From Deltaproteobacteria bacterium (GTDB lineage Bacteria; Myxococcota_A; Polyangia; Fen-1088), in NCBI GenBank assembly GCA_033763315.1, contig JANRKS010000009.1:320001-384000 (forward strand): DNA of 64,000 nt, in the 5' to 3' direction. The notes below the pieces were generated by a model. That model was not told the origin of the DNA and searched no databases. It saw only the letters and a list, made by a program, of their open reading frames with translations. A program made the position numbers and the translations under genes. Below, piece by piece: positions 20,613-30,013 of this stretch. Positions within the stretch are counted from its first letter, which is position 1. Each line of letters starts with the position of its first letter.

Positions 20613-22184
20613 ATGGCCAGCGTATTTACCGCCGCCCAAGCGCGGGCGTCAGATCAATTTGTGATGTCCACGTTGGGCTTGCCGGGCGTGGTGTTGATGG
20701 AAAATGCGGGGCGCGGGGTGGCGCGCGTGATTCGCCGGGCGCTGCTCAAGAAGAATCAGACGCTGGCAAACGCCAAAGTTGTTGTGGTGTGTGGTGCGGG
20801 GCAAAACGGTGGCGATGGCTTTGTGATCGCGCGGCACCTGCATCTGATGGGCGCGCGTGTGCAAGTTTATTTGGTGATGCCAGCGGCGAAGATCCAAGGC
20901 GACGCGGCGGTGAACCTGCGGGCATTGCAGGGCCTTGACGAGGTGCCGGTGGACGACGTGAGCGATGTGCTCGACGAAGAAGCCTGGTGGGATTGGCTCA
21001 ACGACGCGGACGTGTTGGTTGACGCGATCTTTGGTACTGGTTTGCGCGCGGACGTTACGGGTGTGCCTGCGGTGGCCATCGCGGCGATGAACGAAAGCCG
21101 CGCGCTGCGTGTGGCTGTGGACGTGCCGTCGGGGCTCAATGCCGACACGGGCCGGGTGCAGGGCGTGGCGGTCAACGCTGACGTCACGGCGACCATGGCC
21201 GTGCGCAAGCTAGGTTTGGTGGTGGATGCCGACGCGCCGGTGGGTGAGGTTGTGGTTGTGGGCCTTGGGGCCCCACCGCATGAGGATCCGGCCTTGGCGC
21301 CGTTTGTGCGTTGGGTGGAACCAGCTTTGGTGAAGGCCTGGCTGCCGGTGTTCGGTGCCGCCGCTCACAAGGGAACACGCGGGCACGTGCTGCTCGTTGC
21401 GGGCTCGGAAGGTAAAACCGGCGCCGCGGCTTTGTGCGGTCGTGCGGCGCTGCGTGCAGGTGCGGGCTTGGTGACTGTGGCCACAACGAAAGCCGCGCAG
21501 ACGGCGGTGGACGCGAAGGTGTGGGAAGTGATGTCAGCGGCATTTACGTCCGTTGATGACGCCACCCCCGACAGCTTCGATGTGGTGATGCGGTTGTCAT
21601 CAAAGATGAAGTCGATCGGCCTTGGCCCAGGTTTGCCCACCGGCCCGGGAACAGCGGCTTTCGTGCAGCGGATGGCGGTGCAATGCGCTTTGCCGATGGT
21701 CATCGATGCAGAAGCGTTGAATCACATCGCTGCCGACCCCGGCGTTTTGATGCAGGCACGTGGGCCCCGCGTATTGACACCGCATCCAGCCGAGATGGCG
21801 CGGCTGTTGGGCGTCACAACAACCGACGTGCAGGCCGATCGCGCGACGGCAGCACGAACGCTGGCGCAGAAAACGCAGGCGATCGTGGTGCTCAAAGGCG
21901 CACGCACCCTGGTTGCTTTGCCGAACGGAACTCTTTATGTGAACCCTGCGGCGTCGCCCGCGCTTGGCACCGCGGGCAGCGGCGACGTTTTGACGGGGGC
22001 AATCGCCGCGTTGTTGGCGCAAGGGCTCACGGCGGAGCAGGCAAGTGTGTGTGGTGTGTTCGTGCACGGCATGGCGGCCGATGACGCCTGTGCTCGCTTG
22101 GGTTTGCAGCACCTTTTGGCCGGCGAGCTGCCTGACGCGTTTGCGCGCGTGCAAGCCGCCCTGCAGTCGGTTCCTCAGATCTGA
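20613..22184 (+). CDS. nnr: Bifunctional NAD(P)HX epimerase/dehydratase
   Basis: LMENAG, GQNGGDG, DAIFGTG, HKGTRG, LTPHPAEM, TAGSGDVL; ATG 20613 follows AAGGAG (alternative GTG 20589). Confidence 0.94.
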   Translation: MASVFTAAQARASDQFVMSTLGLPGVVLMENAGRGVARVIRRALLKKNQTLANAKVVVVCGAGQNGGDGFVIARHLHLMGARVQVYLVMPAAKIQGDAAVNLRALQGLDEVPVDDVSDVLDEEAWWDWLNDADVLVDAIFGTGLRADVTGVPAVAIAAMNESRALRVAVDVPSGLNADTGRVQGVAVNADVTATMAVRKLGLVVDADAPVGEVVVVGLGAPPHEDPALAPFVRWVEPALVKAWLPVFGAAAHKGTRGHVLLVAGSEGKTGAAALCGRAALRAGAGLVTVATTKAAQTAVDAKVWEVMSAAFTSVDDATPDSFDVVMRLSSKMKSIGLGPGLPTGPGTAAFVQRMAVQCALPMVIDAEALNHIAADPGVLMQARGPRVLTPHPAEMARLLGVTTTDVQADRATAARTLAQKTQAIVVLKGARTLVALPNGTLYVNPAASPALGTAGSGDVLTGAIAALLAQGLTAEQASVCGVFVHGMAADDACARLGLQHLLAGELPDAFARVQAALQSVPQI

Positions 22185-24442
22185 ACGCCCAGCACGAATC
22201 CGGGGTACAAGCGGACGGTGGTGTCGCCGTCACGGTAAACCTTCTCAAGCACCCCGAGCCCGGCCTTGTAGTCCATCTTGTTCCAAGACGTTTCCACGTT
22301 GAATGTGGGGCCGAGGGTAAGCGCGAAGTGCTTCGCGACGGAATAACCCAAAACCGCGCGCAAAGTGCCAAGCGTGCTGTCGCGCTCGCCATAGTCGGAA
22401 CTGTTGCCCATCTGCGTGCCGACCACATCGAGATCCACCCACATCGGCCCGCCTGGTGGCGTGATGTGAAAACCAAGACCCAAGTGTGTGCTGTACGTTT
22501 GGCGATCATCGTCGCCCTTGGTGATGCCGCCGCCCAACACAGTGTAGAAGTGTCGCGCGCCGAGTTTCAGGCTCACGTTCGTGCGGCTCGTGTCGCTCGT
22601 ATAGAACGAGAGGCCGTGGTAGCCGTCCCTTACAAAAGGAATGATGCCCACCGAAGCGCCTTCCATAGAATTGGCAACATTCACAACGCCAATCTGCGTG
22701 CCTTTGACTTTTGAGGCCACGTTGACGACGCCAATTTGTGCACCCGTGACAGTGCCACCGATGTTAACCACGCCCATCTGGAGGCTGCCGTCAAGAACGC
22801 CTGCCAGGTTGACGACACCCGCTTGGAACCCCTTGAACTCACCGCGGTTGACGTTTATCACCGCCGGCGCAAAGCCCACGAACTTGCCGCTGTTGTAATT
22901 GATGACGGCCGCTTGCACGCCTTTGAAGTCACCCTCAGACCAATTGAACATCGCGGCCTGCACGCCCGTGAAAGCGCCATGCGATACGTTCAACAGCGCT
23001 CCCGTTTGCAAACCGTAAAAGCCACCCAAGGCCATGTTGACGCCAGATGAGAACTGCGCACCCCTGCCATAGCCGCGTGACAGGTTAAGTCCTGTGGCGA
23101 ATTGGGCGCCATGCATTTCGCCTTCAACGATGTTGCCGCCCAGCGATAGCTGCACCCCGCGCAGTTCGTCTGAATGGCCAAGCAGGCCCAAAACAAACCT
23201 GTGGCGCACCTTTTGTTCGGGATGCCCAGACAGACGCACGCCCGGGGCTGCGACCAGATCGAAAGCCACATCGCGCAGCGGCTGCGCTTCGGATTCACCA
23301 TCACCGCGTAAGGTCGCCACAAACGAAGTGGTGGGCGCAAAGTCGTTCTGTGCCAGCTGACGGCGCTTGCCTTTTTCGAGCGTCACGTTGGTTTCAAAAG
23401 GACGGCCATCGGCATCAAGCAGCACACGGTACGTGCCTGGGCCGAGGCCGAGTTCCACGGGATAAACAGGCTCTTTGCGCAACTCAACCAACAGGCGCCC
23501 GGCGGCGTCTCGCACGTAGATGCGTCCAGAGAGCGTTTCGTTGAGCACCAACGTGGCGTCGGTGGCGCGCAGATCCGTCATCACCAGATCGCCCGTGCCA
23601 GCGAGTTGAATGTCGTACGCAGCATGTTGAGCGCCCGCGTGGCTCTTTTCTGTGCGGCGCAGGGTTTCGTCGTAAGCGAACTGATACGCTTCACCCAACG
23701 TCACCTTGCCGTCGCGGCTGCTGTCGGCGGCGCCGCGCAAACCAGAAACCAAATAATGTGTGAAGAAGGCCGCTCCCACGCGGTCTGATTCTTGGGCCGA
23801 TTCATCGGCGGAGCTGGCCGTTAAGAACGCGTGGCCACGAGCGTCGCTGCTGACGTCTGCAAGGAACGGCGCGCGCATGGCGCCGCCCTTGAGGCGAATC
23901 ATGGCGCCCGACGAACATGAATCCAAAATGGCGATGCGTACGTCGGCGCCCAAATCTTGAATCCACTGGCGAAGCTCGCGGTACGTGATGCGGTCGCTGC
24001 CCAGCAACAGGCCCTCTTCGTCAGAGTGGCCCGAGTAATACACGAACAATTCTTTGCGCGTGCCGGGTGCCTGCGCTTCTTGCAAGCGTGTGCGCAGCTT
24101 ATCAAAGCCGATCTCCACACTGGTGCGGTTGGCGTTTGGCAACATGATGAGATCGCGCGGATCCAATCCGCCCAATTGCATGAGCACATCCGACATGGCC
24201 TTGGCGTCAGAGTTGGCAAAGCGCAATTGTGCGCGGCTGCCACCGCCATTGTTTGAGGAAGCGATGAGCGCGTACCGACGCAGGTGCGATGATGGTGCAT
24301 GCGCATCGGCAAGCGCCGCGCGATCGACGAGGCAAAGCAGCGCAACGACGATCGCAAAAGCCAGAAGCAGACGTGCGATGAACAGCGACAGCGCTTGCGA
24401 TGCAAAGGCGGGCGCGCGAACAACGGTGCGAGAAGGCATCAC
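22175..24442 (-). CDS. Exported caspase-like (C14) peptidase with Ig-like linker, GxQ repeats and predicted C-terminal outer-membrane beta-barrel
   Basis: Hydrophobic signal peptide; YYSGH and ILDSC catalytic dyad; AQESD, FFTHYLVSGLRGAAD; about 12 GxQ...N repeats; amphipathic strands ending GFVLGVQI. Confidence 0.85.
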   Translation of the reverse strand: MMPSRTVVRAPAFASQALSLFIARLLLAFAIVVALLCLVDRAALADAHAPSSHLRRYALIASSNNGGGSRAQLRFANSDAKAMSDVLMQLGGLDPRDLIMLPNANRTSVEIGFDKLRTRLQEAQAPGTRKELFVYYSGHSDEEGLLLGSDRITYRELRQWIQDLGADVRIAILDSCSSGAMIRLKGGAMRAPFLADVSSDARGHAFLTASSADESAQESDRVGAAFFTHYLVSGLRGAADSSRDGKVTLGEAYQFAYDETLRRTEKSHAGAQHAAYDIQLAGTGDLVMTDLRATDATLVLNETLSGRIYVRDAAGRLLVELRKEPVYPVELGLGPGTYRVLLDADGRPFETNVTLEKGKRRQLAQNDFAPTTSFVATLRGDGESEAQPLRDVAFDLVAAPGVRLSGHPEQKVRHRFVLGLLGHSDELRGVQLSLGGNIVEGEMHGAQFATGLNLSRGYGRGAQFSSGVNMALGGFYGLQTGALLNVSHGAFTGVQAAMFNWSEGDFKGVQAAVINYNSGKFVGFAPAVINVNRGEFKGFQAGVVNLAGVLDGSLQMGVVNIGGTVTGAQIGVVNVASKVKGTQIGVVNVANSMEGASVGIIPFVRDGYHGLSFYTSDTSRTNVSLKLGARHFYTVLGGGITKGDDDRQTYSTHLGLGFHITPPGGPMWVDLDVVGTQMGNSSDYGERDSTLGTLRAVLGYSVAKHFALTLGPTFNVETSWNKMDYKAGLGVLEKVYRDGDTTVRLYPGFVLGVQI
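22640..23170 (-). repeat. About 12 tandem 14-16 aa repeats (LA_2272-like, probable beta-helix) inside the caspase gene
   Basis: e.g. ELRGVQLSLGGN, EMHGAQFATGLN, DFKGVQAAVIN, TVTGAQIGVVN, KVKGTQIGVVN; coordinates approximate. Confidence 0.8.
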
Positions 24443-25218
24443 TGTGGGTCCTTTTTGAAGGTCACTTGGAAGCTGGTGGTGTCGGCAGGCAACGCCGCGC
24501 CCGTTTGCAGCGCGGTTGTGATGGTTTGCGATTCAAACGGCGTGGGCGAAAGCACCAGCCAAAACCGTTCAAACCCTTTGGAGTTATCCAACTCGTAGGC
24601 GTTGGGAAGGCGGTTTTCACCGTTGGTTTGCAACGTGGGTGCGCGCCCAGGCACCGAAGGAAGATGCAGCGTGGTGGTGTTCGCTGCGTCGATGGACACG
24701 ATCACGCCATAAGGGGCTGCCGCGCCTTGGGCGTTGGGGGGGACCACGTAAGCCACTTGCAGCACGTCGCCTGGGTGAACAACATCTTGCGCGGTTAGGC
24801 GTTCAGGTGCGCCTTCGCGTTTGCGATAGACGACGAGGTGAGGCTTGGCGCCTTTGATGTTGATTGTTTCTTCGCCCACGTCAGTCACCAAGGTGGTGGT
24901 TGAGCGTGGCGCCACAGCGATGAGGACCAGTGCACCCACAGCGCCGAGCGCGAGGGCCGGTAAGACGAACGGGCGCCGCGCGGGCTTGTTCGTTTGTTGA
25001 CCGGATCGACGACGGATTTCGTTCGCCATCCAGTGCGGTGGGTGACGGGAGAAGATCTCGTCGTCTGACTTGGCCAAGTTTTCCATGGCTGCGGCGAGGC
25101 CGCCTGGTTGTTGTTCAAGTCGTTGCCGTAACTCTTCTGCCTGAGCTTGCGGCAATTCGCCTTTGGCCAGACGTTCAAGCAGATATTGCGGCACGGGCGT
25201 GTGTTGGCGGTTTGTCAT
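24439..25218 (-). CDS. Putative single-pass membrane anti-sigma factor with extracytoplasmic Ig-like (DUF4384-like) domain
   Basis: N-terminal LLERLAKGEL helix, TM FVLPALALGAVGALVLIAV, C-terminal GDVLQVAY..IVSIDA..LHLP..LPNAYELD..GFERF; coupled to the sigma gene by TAATG. Confidence 0.75.
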   Translation of the reverse strand: MTNRQHTPVPQYLLERLAKGELPQAQAEELRQRLEQQPGGLAAAMENLAKSDDEIFSRHPPHWMANEIRRRSGQQTNKPARRPFVLPALALGAVGALVLIAVAPRSTTTLVTDVGEETINIKGAKPHLVVYRKREGAPERLTAQDVVHPGDVLQVAYVVPPNAQGAAAPYGVIVSIDAANTTTLHLPSVPGRAPTLQTNGENRLPNAYELDNSKGFERFWLVLSPTPFESQTITTALQTGAALPADTTSFQVTFKKDPQ

Positions 25219-25739
25219 TAATGCACCAAACTTGCGGGAAGGTCTGTGGCTGCCTCTTGTGGCAGACGTTCTTTGAGCACACGCAAACGCTTGCGCACAC
25301 CCGAAACGGAAAGCCCCACCTCCGCCGCCACCTCTTCCAAGGTCAATCGGTCCACGTAGTGCAAAACGGCGATGAGTTGCGTTGATGGAGGTGTGCCTGA
25401 AAACAGGCGCTGCAACACCCGGCGCCCCAGCGACAAGCTTTCACTGTCGCCGCCTTCGCCGAGCCCACTGATGTGGTGAAGCATCACGGTATCGGGATCG
25501 GTTTCGTGCTCGGGGTGCCGCTTCTCGGTCCGCAGCCGGTTGAGGCACACATTTGTGGCCGCTTTGAGCAGCAGCCCCGCGGGAGCTTCTTGGGTGAGTG
25601 TGTCTTGGCGACGCAGCATTACTACGAATGTGTCTTGCATGGCATCCAGGGCTTTCCCCTCGTCTTTGAGCAGGCGGCGACAGCGCCGCAGGACCATCGG
25701 TCCGAACTGCCTGTAGAGGTTTTCAACGTCGAGCGCCAT
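25218..25739 (-). CDS. ECF sigma factor
   Basis: Region 2 LYRQFGPMVLRRCRRLL..DAMQDTF..ATNVCLN; region 4 LTLEEVAAEVGLSVSGVRKRL; start MALDVE at 25739. Confidence 0.92.
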   Translation of the reverse strand: MALDVENLYRQFGPMVLRRCRRLLKDEGKALDAMQDTFVVMLRRQDTLTQEAPAGLLLKAATNVCLNRLRTEKRHPEHETDPDTVMLHHISGLGEGGDSESLSLGRRVLQRLFSGTPPSTQLIAVLHYVDRLTLEEVAAEVGLSVSGVRKRLRVLKERLPQEAATDLPASLVH

Positions 25740-25741
25740 TG

Positions 25742-25787
25742 GTGGGGTTCTTAACCTGAAACACCGGCGCGGAAAGAAAGTGTTACC
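25742..25787 (-). promoter_or_regulatory. Predicted ECF autoregulatory promoter (copy 1)
   Basis: Minus strand GGTAACA-ctttctttccg-CGCCGGTGTT-N12-CCCCAC; same blocks and spacing as 29410-29455. Confidence 0.75.
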
Positions 25788-25834
25788 GCGAAGATCAAAA
25801 AAATTTTGGCTCCACTGGCCCGGCGCGCTACGCG

Positions 25835-26902
25835 TCACGGGAGGACTTGGATGCTCATCTGTCGCCAGCCGGTGCCGCCACGCAGGTCGCGGACCACCAT
25901 CCACAGTGACACCATGCCGCCGGTGGCAGCCGGGGGAACGTCGGGCGCTGTGAACACGTTGTCGAACGTCTTTGTGAGGGCCGCGGCGGTGCGGTCGGAG
26001 CCCAGGGCACCCGCTGTGGCAAACCACGAGACGACGGGCTGCTCCTTCGTTTCGATGATTTCAAGCCGGCTGTCCTGCAAGGCCGACTCGATGCTTTGGT
26101 AAGGCTCAAACGCGCCCTCTGAAAGGGTGGGCAGCAAGCGCACCTTCTCCTTGGCCCTCATAACCAACGCGCCATCAACGGGCGCAAACGGGAGGCCTGC
26201 TGTGCTTCCGCGGGCAACGGACACGGAGGTGATCTGCGGGTTCTGGTTGGGCGTGCGCGGACGCACGGCAAGGCAACCTGGTACCGGTGCGTTTGCCTCA
26301 CATACCCGAAAGCCGAAAGTGGTCGACAGCTCGGGGTTCCACTGGGATAGGTCCAACGCGTTTAATGTCACGCGCTTTTGCACCGTCACAGTTTGCGGCC
26401 CGGCGTTCACAGTCAACACGGCCGACGGCCACGCCCCGTTGCCCAAGCCCATGGCCGAAGCGTCGAGGTGATAAGTGAACAGCTCTGCGGGCCACGCGGA
26501 AGCAAACGGGGCCACATCTTGCGCGCCGATGCCTTTGTCGGCCGCGGGCGTGCTTGTGCCCGTCATCGCCTGCGCAAACAGGGCGTCCAGCATGGGCCGC
26601 AGGGGCTGGGGCGCTTGATCACGAAGCGCCGGAAAGTTCGTGCACGCTTCGGCAGAATCCACCGGGCAGAACCGCCACGCGAAGGTCGCAGGCGCACCGC
26701 CGCGTGGATCGTCCACCAAGGCGGTGAACGTCACTTGCGGCGCGCTCCAGCCGGCTGTGCGATCGAACAGCACCTCCGGAGGCTCAGCCGCCACGGCCAA
26801 CACGCGCAGGTCTTTGACTTCGGTGGGCTTGTCGCTGGGCTCACCGCAGGCAGCCACAAGCGTCGCGCTGGCTAAGAGTGAGAAAATAAGTGGGGTTTTC
26901 AT
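25835..26902 (-). CDS. Lipoprotein partner of the TonB-dependent receptor
   Basis: Lipobox LVAAC; DLRVLAVAAEPPE, SWFATAG, VVRDLRGG; TGATG overlap with the receptor stop. Confidence 0.8.
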   Translation of the reverse strand: MKTPLIFSLLASATLVAACGEPSDKPTEVKDLRVLAVAAEPPEVLFDRTAGWSAPQVTFTALVDDPRGGAPATFAWRFCPVDSAEACTNFPALRDQAPQPLRPMLDALFAQAMTGTSTPAADKGIGAQDVAPFASAWPAELFTYHLDASAMGLGNGAWPSAVLTVNAGPQTVTVQKRVTLNALDLSQWNPELSTTFGFRVCEANAPVPGCLAVRPRTPNQNPQITSVSVARGSTAGLPFAPVDGALVMRAKEKVRLLPTLSEGAFEPYQSIESALQDSRLEIIETKEQPVVSWFATAGALGSDRTAAALTKTFDNVFTAPDVPPAATGGMVSLWMVVRDLRGGTGWRQMSIQVLP

Positions 26903-29397
26903 CAGATTTCACCTTTCACGCCCACGATGGGCAATACGGGCAGGCCACGAAGCTCGGTGCGCTCTGCATAACGGTAGTCGTATCCAACGGCCTCCACGGG
27001 ACGCCGGTTGTACGTGTTCATCACTTCCAAATAGCTGGTCAAGCTCCAGCCTTTGAAGTCCCAACGCTTGTCGAAGCGCAGGTCCAGGCGATGGAACGTA
27101 GGCAACCGTTCAGACGCACGCGCCACGGAGCCGTTTTGCACTTTATAGGTATCGCTATCAGCGTCGAAGTGGGAGCGGCCCTTCTCAAGTGGCGTTGTAG
27201 GGTTGCCAGATACGAGTTGGAAGCGGAAACCGAGTGACATCTTCCACGGCAATTGCCACGCGCCCACCGCCGTGAGGATGTGTGTTTGATCGAACGGCGA
27301 AAGATACGTGCTGGCCACTTTCGGCAGTTCATAAAGCCGGGCCGATCCTGGATCGACGCTGGCGTATTGGTTGATGCCGCCGAGCGTGGCCGTGCGATCT
27401 GTGCGCGTGGAGCGCGACAAGGTATACGCCACCCAGCCGTTGAAACGCCGGTGCTCGGCCGGGTTGCGCTTCACCATCAATTCAAGGCCATACGAATGCC
27501 CGCGGCCGTCGCTCTTGAACAGCACAGGCGTGGCCTTGCCATCTTTGTAGGTCACTTCATCTGTGGGCGAGGGCAGATTGGATCGCCACACATTGAACAC
27601 CTCGGCGCTTAGGTTCACGGCTTCGAGACTTCGTTCGGCGCCGCTCGTTATATGCACGGCTTTTTCAGCCGAAAGATTGGGCTGGCCAAAACCATCAACC
27701 ATCACGCCCGAAAAAAGATCGGGCAGTTTTTGGTAAACGCCGGCCGAGGCTTTCACCGATGTTTGCTCGTTGATTTGCCAGCGGCTCGCCAAGCGCGGCT
27801 GGAACGTGAAGCGTTCGGTGCTGTCGAAATCCAAGTGATCCACGCGCAAGCCAGGCGTCAAGGTCACATCGGGATGAGGGTTGACGACAAGCTCCGTCCA
27901 ATAGCCCTGGTGCAGATCTGTGTTGCCGTCCTTCCATGGGTCTTGTCGAGTGGGATCCACGATCAACGGCGATGGGTACGTGCGACCGAGGTTCGGCAGC
28001 TCGGTAATGAAGTCGGCGCTCCAATGGTAAAGCTGGCTGTCGATGCCGGCGCGCAACTTTATATAGGGGGAAAACGCATAGGTCGCAGTTTCTTTCCAGC
28101 TCAAGCTTGTGATCGTCACGCCCGAACGGTGTTGCGTATCGAGCTCTGCTGATTTGTCGCCGAAGTCCTGCTTCAGCAAGCCCGGCGTCAGCGCGGATTC
28201 AAGCGTTAGTTTGTTGCCAAAATACGTGTGCCGCACTTGCAAACGGTGAAATTGCACGCCGCCTGAGAGTGAGAAGTCAGCGTCTTCGGCTGATGTGGCA
28301 CGCACGACTTTAAGCGTGTCGCGGGCTCCAAAGGCAAAGATGTCCCAACGTTGGTGGGCGTCGTGGTGTTCAGCTTTGATCTGATAATCAAGGTAGGCGG
28401 GGGTCACGATGGTGGGGCTTTCACCGTCCTTGGCGGCCCCCTCAAGCAGTGCGGGCAAAAACGCATCCACGTAAGAACGGCGCCCGGCGAGCGCGAGCTT
28501 CCACGATCCCAGCGGCACGCACGTGAAGGCTTCTGCATCAATCGGATCGATCGAGGCCAGCGCGCGTGTGCGGTCGCAAGTTAACGGCTTGGTTTGCACA
28601 TCCACGATGCCCGCCGTGGCACGACCATACTGCGCGCCAAAGCCGCCTGGCATGAAGGTGATGCCACCTAAGAACTCAGCGTTGATCACCGACGTTAGGC
28701 CGCCGAAGTGATAAAGCAGCGGCACTTCAACACCATCGATGTACACGCCGCTATCAGCAGGGTTGGCCCCGCGCACGATTAACGCCCCACCAATCCCTCC
28801 GGGCGCGCGGTTCATACCGGGCAGGTTCTCGACCACGCGCACCGGATCGCCCATCGTCCCGGGCACCGTCTTGATTTCACTGTCCGTGAGCACGATCTCC
28901 GTGACTTCACGCTTGGGACGCGACGCTTTTGCCTTCACCTCGAACACCACCGCCTCGGCTTGTGTCAGGCGGTAGCGCACGGGCACGTCCACGTTGGCGT
29001 CGATTTGCACCTCACCGTCTTTCGGATCGTATTCACCGCTCATCACCAACACGCTGTGCGGGCCCGTACGCAAGGGACGCACCAACAGGTTGCCGTCGGC
29101 GTCGGTTTCACCGCGCGCGTCGCCGTCAATCATCACGGTTGCGCCGGGCACTGGCTCTCCCGTCTTCCCGTCAACGAGCGTCAGCCGCAAGCCGCCGTGC
29201 TGTTTGATCTGCACAGGCGGCGGTGGTGCCATTTCGGTTGGTGCGGCGGGCGTCGCCTCGGGCGGGGGCGAGGTTTCCGTGGGCGTGTCGGTTGGCCCTT
29301 CCGCTTGCGGCGGCGCGGGATCCTGTGCCAAGGCGGCGTGCGCCCAGGCAGGCAGGGCGAGCACGCAAGCGATCGTCAGTCTGATTGTCTTCTTCAT
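26902..29397 (-). CDS. TonB-dependent receptor with N-terminal carboxypeptidase-regulatory-like domain
   Basis: Signal peptide; plug PGTMGDPVRVVENLPG, VRG, YHFGG, GGFGAQYG; barrel motifs FQPRL, GWVAYTLS, DQTH, HRLDLRFD. Confidence 0.9.
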   Translation of the reverse strand: MKKTIRLTIACVLALPAWAHAALAQDPAPPQAEGPTDTPTETSPPPEATPAAPTEMAPPPPVQIKQHGGLRLTLVDGKTGEPVPGATVMIDGDARGETDADGNLLVRPLRTGPHSVLVMSGEYDPKDGEVQIDANVDVPVRYRLTQAEAVVFEVKAKASRPKREVTEIVLTDSEIKTVPGTMGDPVRVVENLPGMNRAPGGIGGALIVRGANPADSGVYIDGVEVPLLYHFGGLTSVINAEFLGGITFMPGGFGAQYGRATAGIVDVQTKPLTCDRTRALASIDPIDAEAFTCVPLGSWKLALAGRRSYVDAFLPALLEGAAKDGESPTIVTPAYLDYQIKAEHHDAHQRWDIFAFGARDTLKVVRATSAEDADFSLSGGVQFHRLQVRHTYFGNKLTLESALTPGLLKQDFGDKSAELDTQHRSGVTITSLSWKETATYAFSPYIKLRAGIDSQLYHWSADFITELPNLGRTYPSPLIVDPTRQDPWKDGNTDLHQGYWTELVVNPHPDVTLTPGLRVDHLDFDSTERFTFQPRLASRWQINEQTSVKASAGVYQKLPDLFSGVMVDGFGQPNLSAEKAVHITSGAERSLEAVNLSAEVFNVWRSNLPSPTDEVTYKDGKATPVLFKSDGRGHSYGLELMVKRNPAEHRRFNGWVAYTLSRSTRTDRTATLGGINQYASVDPGSARLYELPKVASTYLSPFDQTHILTAVGAWQLPWKMSLGFRFQLVSGNPTTPLEKGRSHFDADSDTYKVQNGSVARASERLPTFHRLDLRFDKRWDFKGWSLTSYLEVMNTYNRRPVEAVGYDYRYAERTELRGLPVLPIVGVKGEI

Positions 29398-29409
29398 GGT
29401 CCGTCCGAT

Positions 29410-29455
29410 GTGGGGATTCCTCCCAAGAACACCGGCGGATGAAAAAGCTGTTACC
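29410..29455 (-). promoter_or_regulatory. Predicted ECF-dependent promoter of the receptor-lipoprotein operon (copy 2)
   Basis: Minus strand GGTAACA-gctttttcatc-CGCCGGTGTT-N12-CCCCAC. Confidence 0.75.
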
Positions 29456-29530
29456 TAGAACTCAACGCCGTTAGAAGGTGCTGCCGACCCCGGAATAGGG
29501 GTTGCGTCCGGTGCTGGCTGAAGGGCGATG

Positions 29531-30013
29531 TCATGGAACGGACGTCTCTTCGAGGGCCGCCAGCAACCGCAGCAGCGTTGCATGCATGTGCTTCGCATCG
29601 GCGGTCCCAATCACGTTGCCTAGCTGCGCTTCAAGCTCGCCCAACATGGCCAAACCCATGAGCAGCCCCTTTTTCCCGCGTGCCGAAAACATCACCAACC
29701 GCGCGCGGCCATCGGCCGGATCCGCCACTTGCTCAAGCAGGCCCATTTCCACCAGCTCCTCCACCAATTGCCCCACGGCCTGCTTGCTGATACCCACACG
29801 TTCCGCCAAGACACCGGGCCGCGTTCCTTGCAGATCAATATGGGGGAACAAAGCTGTGTGTGAGGGCCGCACGTGTTGTTTGGTCCGTTTTTGCAAAAGT
29901 GCCAGCGCGCGCTCGTTGAGTAGACGCGCACACTTGAACAGCACCTGCGCCCAAGAAGCATTCTTGGCGACGGCAAGCGCGGCGGCAAACTCATCGGAAG
30001 GGGGGGCTGGCAT
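29531..30013 (-). CDS. MarR family transcriptional regulator
   Basis: LAERVGISKQAVGQLVEELVEMG, DPADGRA; ATG 30013 preferred over TTG 30022. Confidence 0.92.
   Translation of the reverse strand: MPAPPSDEFAAALAVAKNASWAQVLFKCARLLNERALALLQKRTKQHVRPSHTALFPHIDLQGTRPGVLAERVGISKQAVGQLVEELVEMGLLEQVADPADGRARLVMFSARGKKGLLMGLAMLGELEAQLGNVIGTADAKHMHATLLRLLAALEETSVP

Follow-up and report, generated by a model that had tools for sequence, protein, structure and literature searches.

The window is the 64,000 nt stretch at positions 320,001–384,000 of contig JANRKS010000009.1 (assembly GCA_033763315.1, Deltaproteobacteria bacterium). Positions 22175–29455 of this window carry five co-directional genes on the minus strand, which form two translationally coupled units. 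Unit 1 consists of a TonB-dependent receptor gene and a lipoprotein gene. Unit 2 consists of the genes for a sigma factor of the extracytoplasmic function (ECF) type, an anti-sigma candidate and a caspase-fold protein. The sigma/anti-sigma/caspase trio is supported as a conserved unit that is widespread across myxobacteria. We tentatively read the locus as one copy of a conserved envelope-signaling module, in which an autoregulated ECF sigma factor and a single-pass anti-sigma factor would be joined by an outer-membrane-tethered metacaspase-like protease, the caspase serving as the dedicated site-1 protease. This is the reading we favor, with less than even confidence.

The conservation of the trio was analyzed from both ends. 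A search of 401 genomes of the window's phylum with an anti-sigma profile gave a match in 135, and the 29 best loci from other genomes were analyzed. The caspase gene adjoins the anti-sigma gene in 29/29 of these loci, and a sigma gene is there too in 28/29. Twenty loci, picked for their long contigs, were re-examined with 10-kb flanks; the caspase is present in 20/20 and the sigma factor in 19/20, and the caspase gene is divergent in two. From the caspase side, a scan of species-representative genomes gave at least 599 pattern matches and at least 575 confirmed relatives. Among the best 80 of the 575 caspase loci, the anti-sigma gene is directly upstream on the same strand in all 80. The sigma gene is adjacent in 56, nine are cut by a contig end, and 15 have room for a sigma gene and show none. 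These 15 loci are mostly from Archangium, Vitiosangium, Citreicoccus, Myxococcus and Pyxidicoccus, and every one of them has the promoter-like motif described below right before the anti-sigma gene. In three complete genomes of this group, an orthologue of the sigma factor (53% identity) is encoded at another place, together with a second paralogue of the anti-sigma and behind the same motif. The co-occurrence of the three core genes, which the initial annotation had proposed as a check, is thus found from both directions.

The gene layout agrees with that given in the initial annotation, i.e., five co-directional genes in two coupled units (Table 1). The stop and start codons overlap as TGATG between receptor and lipoprotein, as TAATG between sigma and anti-sigma, and as GTGATG between anti-sigma and caspase. 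A gap of 95 nt separates the lipoprotein gene from the ECF sigma gene.

Table 1. Coordinates of the genes, domains and motif copies of the locus (window positions).
Feature	Position	Strand	Description	Basis
TonB-dependent receptor	26902–29397	-	831 aa; signal peptide, Pro/Thr-rich spacer, CarboxypepD_reg 71–144, plug 170–263, barrel 372–787	Pfam
Lipoprotein	25835–26902	-	355 aa; no Pfam family	
ECF sigma factor	25218–25739	-	173 aa; sigma-2 at 8–74, sigma-4 at 118–153	
Single-pass anti-sigma candidate	24439–25218	-	259 aa; N-domain 11–73, transmembrane segment 84–103 (24910–24969), disordered linker, DUF4384-like sandwich 127–256	
Invariant K122-G123 codons	24850–24855	-	Linker/folded-domain boundary, 19 residues after the transmembrane segment; candidate cleavage site	
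Exported caspase-fold protein	22175–24442	-	755 aa from GTG start, 754 aa from ATG at 24439	
Metacaspase-fold domain	23567–24283	-	Residues 53–291 (ATG numbering); His codon 24026–24028, Cys codon 23915–23917, then R-x-K-G-G loop	
Beta-sandwich			After the metacaspase domain, to residue ~362	Model
Beta-helix stalk	22622–23278	-	Residues 388–606; LA_2272-type pentapeptide-repeat-like units	
C-terminal 8-stranded outer-membrane barrel	22178–22633	-	Residues 603–754; family consensus ends ...GLQF	
ECF-type promoter-like motif GGTAACAGCTTTTTCATCCGCCGGTGTT	29428–29455	-	30 nt before the receptor start codon	
Second motif copy GGTAACACTTTCTTTCCGCGCCGGTGTT	25760–25787	-	20 nt before the sigma start codon	

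GGTAACA-N15-CGGTGTT stands at the head of both units. The form GGTAAC-N16-GGTGTT has just these two matches in the window, where 0.14 are expected; two of 100 shuffled sequences reached two matches. In the whole 7.6 Mb genome this N16 form is present at the same two sites only. The claim of one promoter-like motif common to both units stands. The family consensus from 103 distinct sites is G-GTGACA-(C/G)-N-T-N11-C-GGTGTT. Three of its positions are not forced by the search pattern: the G at -1 (88/103), the A after GTGAC (95/103) and the C before GGTGTT (90/103). The copy at the head of the receptor gene fits this consensus. In 25 of 28 other loci, GT(G/A)AC-N15-17-GGTGT(T/C) is present upstream of the sigma gene at a distance of up to 200 nt, and the motif stands at the operon head in 18/20 of the loci with 10-kb flanks. 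It is found in 62/80 of the caspase-derived loci, and 10 of the 18 loci lacking it are cut upstream by contig ends. In the two loci where the caspase gene is transcribed divergently (L047 and L048), a separate motif copy precedes the caspase gene. A comparison of the strict pattern with a reversed control in complete genomes gives 11 matches vs 0 in Archangium minus, 9 vs 0 in a Myxococcaceae strain and 4 vs 0 in A. gephyra. Together, the sequence comparisons support the motif as a genuine family-wide promoter-like element. The promoter of the sigma gene at 25760–25787 is presumed to be autoregulated. In window positions 22000–29700, neither a promoter of the sigma-70 type nor terminator-like sites in excess were found.

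Extra copies of the motif precede genes for beta-helix-barrel proteins that are similar to the C-terminal half of the caspase, DUF2807 and DUF4097 beta-helix proteins, TSP3-repeat proteins, lipase-like hydrolases, a beta-lactamase-family protein, DUF4833, ExbB and a TonB-dependent receptor. Because the genes behind these copies encode such proteins, the predicted regulon is one of envelope proteins.

Two further strict copies are present in the window's genome. The copy at G000:C34:238088-238114 (L060 1537–2076) precedes the gene of a 179-aa protein with a weak match to YfaZ, an outer-membrane barrel (E 0.0018), and the copy at G000:C24:132910-132936 (L059) precedes an uncharacterized 164-aa open reading frame. 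Both reading frames are possible extra regulon members. Several motif-headed genes for proteins of 142–164 aa without a Pfam family are present in L169 and L172 (Archangium minus) and in L179 (Myxococcaceae). The motif copies before these genes have the common extended form GT(A/G)ACAGTTTCGCG.

The model of the caspase-fold protein has a mean predicted local distance difference test score (pLDDT) of 85.6. The protein has a match to Peptidase_C14 (PF00656) of 32.5 bits vs a cut-off of 21.4. Structural alignment of the metacaspase domain to Arabidopsis metacaspase 4 (AtMC4) gives a VIA-align Z of 19.9, with a root mean square deviation of 2.9 over 200 residues, and Foldseek matches the domain to yeast Yca1 at 2.7e-6. 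By its fold and its His-Cys dyad the protein belongs to Peptidase C14, i.e., the metacaspase-orthocaspase group of clan CD. The NCBIfam model NF047832 (caspase, EACC1-associated type) scores 64.5 bits, below its cut-off of 140. A search of PDB sequences with the single caspase domain gives no match, and the caspase-family profile retrieves from the same sequences designed pentapeptide-repeat proteins (8.2e-7), one metacaspase (2.2e-4) and nothing else. Among 8000 candidates scored, the family comprises 4328 clusters at E ≤ 0.001; sources that give them a name call them 'caspase family protein' or hypothetical.

The dyad is intact, and the Cys codon lies exactly where the initial annotation had placed it. 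In GTG numbering, the catalytic Cys is residue 176. Both His and Cys are kept without exception, in 55/55 and in 80/80 caspases. An Asp two residues before the Cys (D-S-C-x-S-G) is also present in 80/80; it may be the metacaspase S1 residue, to which specificity for Arg or Lys at P1 would be tied. Nine residues after the Cys, in a loop with pLDDT < 50, there is R-x-K-G-G (as part of T-R-x-K-G-G), in which K, G and G are each conserved in 80/80 and R in 78/80.

The protein has the architecture of an exported protein anchored in the outer membrane. The signal peptide that had been claimed is read from the sequence, where an N-terminal hydrophobic segment ends in AALA/DA, and from the model, which has a helix at residues 13–38. 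The beta-helix matches NF047436 at 8.9e-15 and has a Z of 18.4 to a beta-helical antifreeze protein; adhesin passenger domains are matched as well. The outer-membrane anchor predicted earlier is matched by structure: with the whole-protein model as query, residues 603–754 align to 8-stranded barrels, namely the OprF N-domain (Z 13.4), NspA (12.2) and OmpA (11.8), also OmpW and PagL. OmpA-type 8-stranded barrels have both termini in the periplasm and no translocation pore for a polypeptide. For this reason the likeliest topology is that of a protease suspended from the outer membrane and reaching into the periplasm.

The 173-aa sigma factor matches Sigma70_r2 (8.4e-10) and r4_2 (2.5e-5) in Pfam, and TIGR02937 at 56.6 bits vs a cut-off of 42.9. 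Its size and its domain matches place it among the ECF (group IV) sigma-70 factors. A second ECF trait is also found in silico, i.e., a TAATG-coupled next gene and an upstream GT(G/A)ACA-N15-CGGTGTT motif.

The AlphaFold model of the anti-sigma candidate (mean pLDDT 81) displays four helices (11–73), a low-confidence stretch with the hydrophobic segment 84–103 and the linker, and a confident beta-sandwich (127–256). The pLDDT of the helical N-domain is 82–94 over residues 11–60, 74 over 61–70 and 55 over 71–80. A basic cluster (RRR/K/RR) stands before the hydrophobic segment, and on this basis the N-domain is read from the sequence as cytoplasmic (N-in). Among 18 family members, five match PRK13920 and three match NF052375, both of which are anti-sigma models; the window protein matches neither. 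The score of the window protein against DUF4384 (PF14326) is 12.6 bits (E 0.15; cut-off 27). Weak DUF4384 matches are present in 10/18 family members (best E 0.0029), and two paralogous anti-sigma proteins of the window's genome score 31.8 bits, above the cut-off, and 26.7 bits, just below it. The window anti-sigma is probably a divergent DUF4384 member, judging by these scores. There is no cysteine in its residues 1–83, and the zinc-binding anti-sigma (ZAS) motif H-x3-C-x2-C is therefore not present there. No match to the FecR Pfam family was found. Foldseek with the model finds only generic Ig-like sandwiches (RhoGDI at 3.7e-3; AGS-C domain), none at E ≤ 0.001, and a search of PDB sequences with the profile gives nothing better than E 0.35 (three chance-level rows at E ≤ 1). 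Among the 8000 candidates scored, none is a relative of the anti-sigma made longer by a fusion, which is weak evidence. One locus, L130 (3158–6439), was considered as a natural anti-sigma/caspase fusion in a single frame and was rejected; the anti-sigma profile is split there over two frames, which indicates a frameshift, either an assembly error or a broken gene.

The residues K122-G123 are invariant in the anti-sigma family (18/18 members, and 77/77 sequences that cover the position). They belong to a motif [T/I/V]-[R]-h-K-G, in which R is present in 50/80. The K-G motif of the anti-sigma and the R-x-K-G-G of the caspase both lie in or beside stretches with pLDDT < 50. Metacaspases and orthocaspases are reported to cleave after Arg or Lys (PMC3501461; PMC6426788). 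The presence of T-R-x-K-G in both the protease and its neighbor would fit self-processing together with cleavage of a substrate. A complex prediction for caspase residues 45–370 and anti-sigma residues 100–259, made with alignments of both and no controls, gives ipSAE values of 0.00 and 0.01 vs a mark of 0.32, which speaks neither for nor against binding.

The favored reading can be stated as a sequence of steps. An envelope signal would render the protease active, possibly by a self-cut in its own R-x-K-G-G loop. The protease would then cut the anti-sigma close to K122-G123, in the linker that is exposed immediately outside the membrane, and a site-2 (M50) protease would remove the short stub; the window's genome has eight matches to M50 site-2 protease genes. 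The freed sigma factor would transcribe from GGTGACA-N15-CGGTGTT promoters. In the window's genome such promoters head the trio operon and the receptor-lipoprotein cassette, and the output here would thus include outer-membrane uptake. The binding of sigma to anti-sigma, the periplasmic orientation, the cleavage with its site, and the signal are the parts that we infer. The reading is suggested by the adjacency seen in both directions, an active site that has been kept, a basic-Gly motif common to exposed segments of the two proteins, the predicted presence of both partners in the periplasm, and an independent association of DUF4384 with proteases. This last point comes from two sources. Csx30 is an anti-sigma-like substrate of the caspase-like Csx29, and DUF4384 constitutes one group of Csx30 C-terminal domains (bioRxiv 10.1101/2022.08.17.504292); fusions of DUF4384 to cyanobacterial orthocaspases are also described (PMC7475262).

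Several observations weigh against this reading. T-R-x-K-G is also present in 4/4 anti-sigma paralogues that have no adjacent caspase, i.e., the one of the window's genome that precedes a beta-propeller gene and the sigma-linked ones of Archangium and Myxococcaceae; the motif may on that account be structural. A sigma-induced activator would give positive feedback, and the site-1 proteases DegS, PrsW and Prc are not known to be encoded in the sigma operon. The window anti-sigma falls below every Pfam and NCBIfam threshold. The strict motif pattern has 4 matches in the window's genome vs 1 in the control, and loose patterns are not enriched there (3 vs 6 in the control; 7 vs 28 in the control). 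In the Myxococcaceae and Archangiaceae genomes with such sigma-linked paralogues, moreover, the operon of anti-sigma and caspase has the look of one among several members of the regulon, which fits the protease as an output.

The last point leads to the alternative that survives best, in which the caspase belongs to what the regulon puts out and is not its switch, an envelope protease with the logic of DegP in the sigma-E regulon. The anti-sigma would sense by means of its DUF4384-like domain and would be removed by ordinary site-1/site-2 proteases. In Archangium and Myxococcaceae the sigma factor has its own anti-sigma elsewhere, and the operon of the anti-sigma paralogue and the caspase is one of 4–11 motif-headed units, the remaining ones encoding envelope-looking proteins. 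One paralogous sigma/DUF4384 anti-sigma pair of the window's genome has no caspase, and the M50 proteases that such removal would use are encoded in the genome. A mere output protease, however, would need no adjacency and coupling to an anti-sigma-type gene in 80/80 loci, and the DUF4384-protease association recurs independently in Csx30/Csx29 and in the orthocaspase fusions. We consider this alternative unlikely, though it is the one to be taken most seriously.

More doubtful still is a stable sensor complex of caspase and anti-sigma that would signal without cleavage. In such a complex the DUF4384-like domain would hold or inhibit the protease in the manner of a trans pro-domain, or the protease would shield the anti-sigma as RseB shields RseA, and a signal would arise when the outer-membrane-tethered partner is lost, mislocalized or engaged by a ligand. 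The strictness of the adjacency and the translational coupling would be explained, the architecture puts one partner on each membrane, and cis fusions of DUF4384 to caspase domains are described, some of them to variants without catalytic residues (PMC7475262). The invariance of His, Cys and Asp in 80/80 caspases argues that catalysis matters.

Display of the caspase on the cell surface like an autotransporter passenger, where it would act on prey, kin or matrix and never meet the anti-sigma, is the least probable alternative: the possibility of a caspase outside the cell is raised by a beta-helix that resembles surface-exposed adhesin passenger domains (HMW1, EtpA, Ag43 and UpaB passenger/secretion domains, Z 13–15) and whose repeat family NCBIfam names 'surface repeat-containing', but the barrel region of ~150 residues matches 8-stranded and not the 12-stranded autotransporter barrels (type Va), the protein has no match to the Autotransporter Pfam family, and an 8-stranded barrel has no pore that would be wide enough for a polypeptide.

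If the caspase is a site-1 protease, as we favor, a more specific form of the proposal concerns how it could sense. The barrel and the rigid pentapeptide-type beta-helix would hold the protease at a fixed depth, so that the juxtamembrane K-G site of the inner-membrane anti-sigma would come within its reach only if the assembly of the outer membrane or the spacing of the envelope were disturbed; the output in the window's genome would be TonB-dependent uptake. Such a trans-envelope sensor is a speculative idea and we regard it as rather unlikely.

The receptor of unit 1 matches the Pfam plug (PF07715, 33.4 bits) and barrel (PF00593, 74.9 bits) families, both above their cut-offs, and is a TonB-dependent receptor on this basis. 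No STN domain (PF07660) is found in it at E ≤ 0.01, as the initial annotation had suspected; its N-terminal extension is made up of a Pro-rich spacer and CarboxypepD_reg. The receptor here looks like a target and not the sensor. The lipoprotein has a lipobox-like LVAAC, read from the sequence. Its family is restricted to Myxococcota and has no Pfam name; atlas clusters of it are called 'hypothetical protein' and are commonest in Myxococcota. A homologous receptor is directly upstream of the lipoprotein relatives in 11/11 loci, and receptor and lipoprotein are a conserved two-gene cassette in themselves. The pair adjoins the trio in only one of 20 other loci (L034, from a genome of the window's class), where the cassette has its own motif copy. 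Receptor-lipoprotein cassettes in 10 other genomes have no motif copy. In one distant Myxococcaceae genome the motif precedes a TonB-dependent receptor gene and also an ExbB gene. Control of TonB-dependent uptake therefore appears to be a recurrent but lineage-specific output outside the core module, because the cassette is beside the trio in one locus of 20 and is without the motif in 10 genomes.

Two motif-headed TonB-dependent receptors from two other genomes, at L034 13744–16164 and L189 1539–3026, carry an N-terminal TonB_C domain (PF03544) ahead of the plug. The window receptor has a Pro-rich TonB-like spacer and no TonB_C match.

A system in the literature that is similar to the trio is DdvS/DdvA, from the same phylum. 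In DdvA of Myxococcus xanthus, a caspase-like module has been proposed as the site-1 protease ahead of RseP (PMC11506125). Common to both are an ECF sigma factor, an anti-sigma of the single-pass type and a module of the caspase family with a His-Cys dyad, which is predicted here to be periplasmic as in DdvA. In DdvA, however, a TPR-CHAT protease of ~900 residues is fused to the anti-sigma, whereas the anti-sigma and caspase genes are separate here and the protease is a C14-type protein anchored in the outer membrane. The N-domain of DdvA is a zinc-binding ZAS domain; here the anti-sigma is small, with a Cys-less N-domain and a DUF4384-like Ig domain. The DdvS regulon is reported as CBASS/CRISPR defense (PMC11506125), in contrast to the envelope proteins predicted here. 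The type III-E craspase system (Csx29, Csx30, Csx31, RpoE) also resembles the favored reading, in that a caspase-family protease frees an ECF-type sigma by cutting a linker of an anti-sigma-like protein. Craspase is cytoplasmic, RNA-guided, CRISPR-associated and of the TPR-CHAT type, whereas the partners here are exported or periplasmic and the protease is of the C14 type.

The E. coli sigma-E/RseA/DegS/RseP system shares with the trio, as we tentatively read it, a single-pass anti-sigma, a cytoplasmic sigma-binding N-domain and an envelope-stress regulon that includes proteases and outer-membrane factors. RseA is cut in the periplasm before it is cut in the membrane. The site-1 protease of the sigma-E system is an inner-membrane serine protease encoded elsewhere, whereas the candidate here is an outer-membrane-tethered cysteine protease encoded in the sigma operon. 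FecA/FecR/FecI likewise links an ECF sigma to a TonB-dependent receptor, but here the receptor has no STN domain and the anti-sigma is not FecR-like.

That similar trios might already be annotated in myxobacteria, as the initial annotation had allowed, is probably correct. For M. xanthus DK1622, Asplund-Samuelsson et al. (2012, PMC3501461) place 4/5 metacaspases in predicted operons that include factors of the sigma-70 family, and such operons are also listed for Anaeromyxobacter, Haliangium, Sorangium, Ralstonia and Fibrobacter (PMC3501461). These are probably operons of the same kind as the present module. The operon passages of the 2012 survey name no anti-sigma, promoter, topology or mechanism (PMC3501461); an anti-sigma candidate, a promoter-like motif, a predicted topology and a candidate mechanism are given here. 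A review notes that the genomic context of ECF54 includes CHAT proteins (PMC8999054). In the paper that reclassifies the ECF sigma factors (PMC7826278), the main text is without the words 'caspase', 'CHAT' or 'C14', and its supplementary group descriptions may cover this context. Our literature searches gave no description of the trio or of its split, outer-membrane-anchored form. The proposal of a new system that includes the uptake pair accordingly holds in part: the trio is conserved and its motif family-wide, but the receptor-lipoprotein pair falls outside the core (1/20 loci) and sigma-metacaspase operons have been in print since 2012. With that association known, and with a caspase-like site-1 role proposed in 2024 for DdvA, what this window adds is a receptor-lipoprotein unit headed by the promoter motif of the trio.

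Paralogous sets are present in the window's genome. Contigs C28 (L061 6027–10374) and C11 (L063 5983–10572) each have an ECF sigma, a DUF4384-type anti-sigma and a shorter caspase (536 and 538 aa), and continue with an uncharacterized protein of 425 or 604 aa. On C24 (L062 5092–8268) the sigma and DUF4384 anti-sigma genes are followed by an SGL-type beta-propeller in place of the caspase. Contigs with the myxobacterial-type module, L106 and L095 among them, are also deposited under the titles 'uncultured Enterobacteriaceae bacterium', Spirochaetaceae, Leptospirales, Fermentibacteria and Eiseniibacteriota; some of these non-Myxococcota titles are probably mislabeled.

The flanking genes are unrelated to the module. 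Downstream there are a convergent gene for an NAD(P)H-hydrate repair enzyme and a phosphoglucosamine-mutase-type gene, and upstream a MarR-family gene, a DUF4336 gene and a thioredoxin-like gene. The 3' end of the caspase gene overlaps the convergent repair gene by 10 bases (22175–22184), and no terminator-like site lies between the two. None of the five locus proteins matches a PADLOC model (E ≤ 0.001), and no cas genes are present among the neighbor genes examined around the module.

Bacterial caspase homologues are abundant. In the literature searched, no target is described for this family, and no physiological substrate of a bacterial caspase homologue was found described. The module supplies a specific candidate substrate, i.e., the adjacent anti-sigma with a defined candidate site, and a read-out in the form of a dedicated promoter motif. 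With at least 575 caspase loci in species-representative genomes and cultured, non-pathogenic myxobacteria among the carriers, the idea is directly testable. If the proposed cleavage is true, a cysteine-protease route would join the regulated proteolysis of anti-sigma factors, the self-cleavage proposed for DdvA would be strengthened, and the logic of the cytoplasmic craspase-Csx30 system would gain an envelope counterpart through the common DUF4384 domain. A true trans-envelope sensor would represent a cysteine-protease class of site-1 protease. If the caspase is only an output, the regulon would still define an uncharacterized envelope response of myxobacteria.

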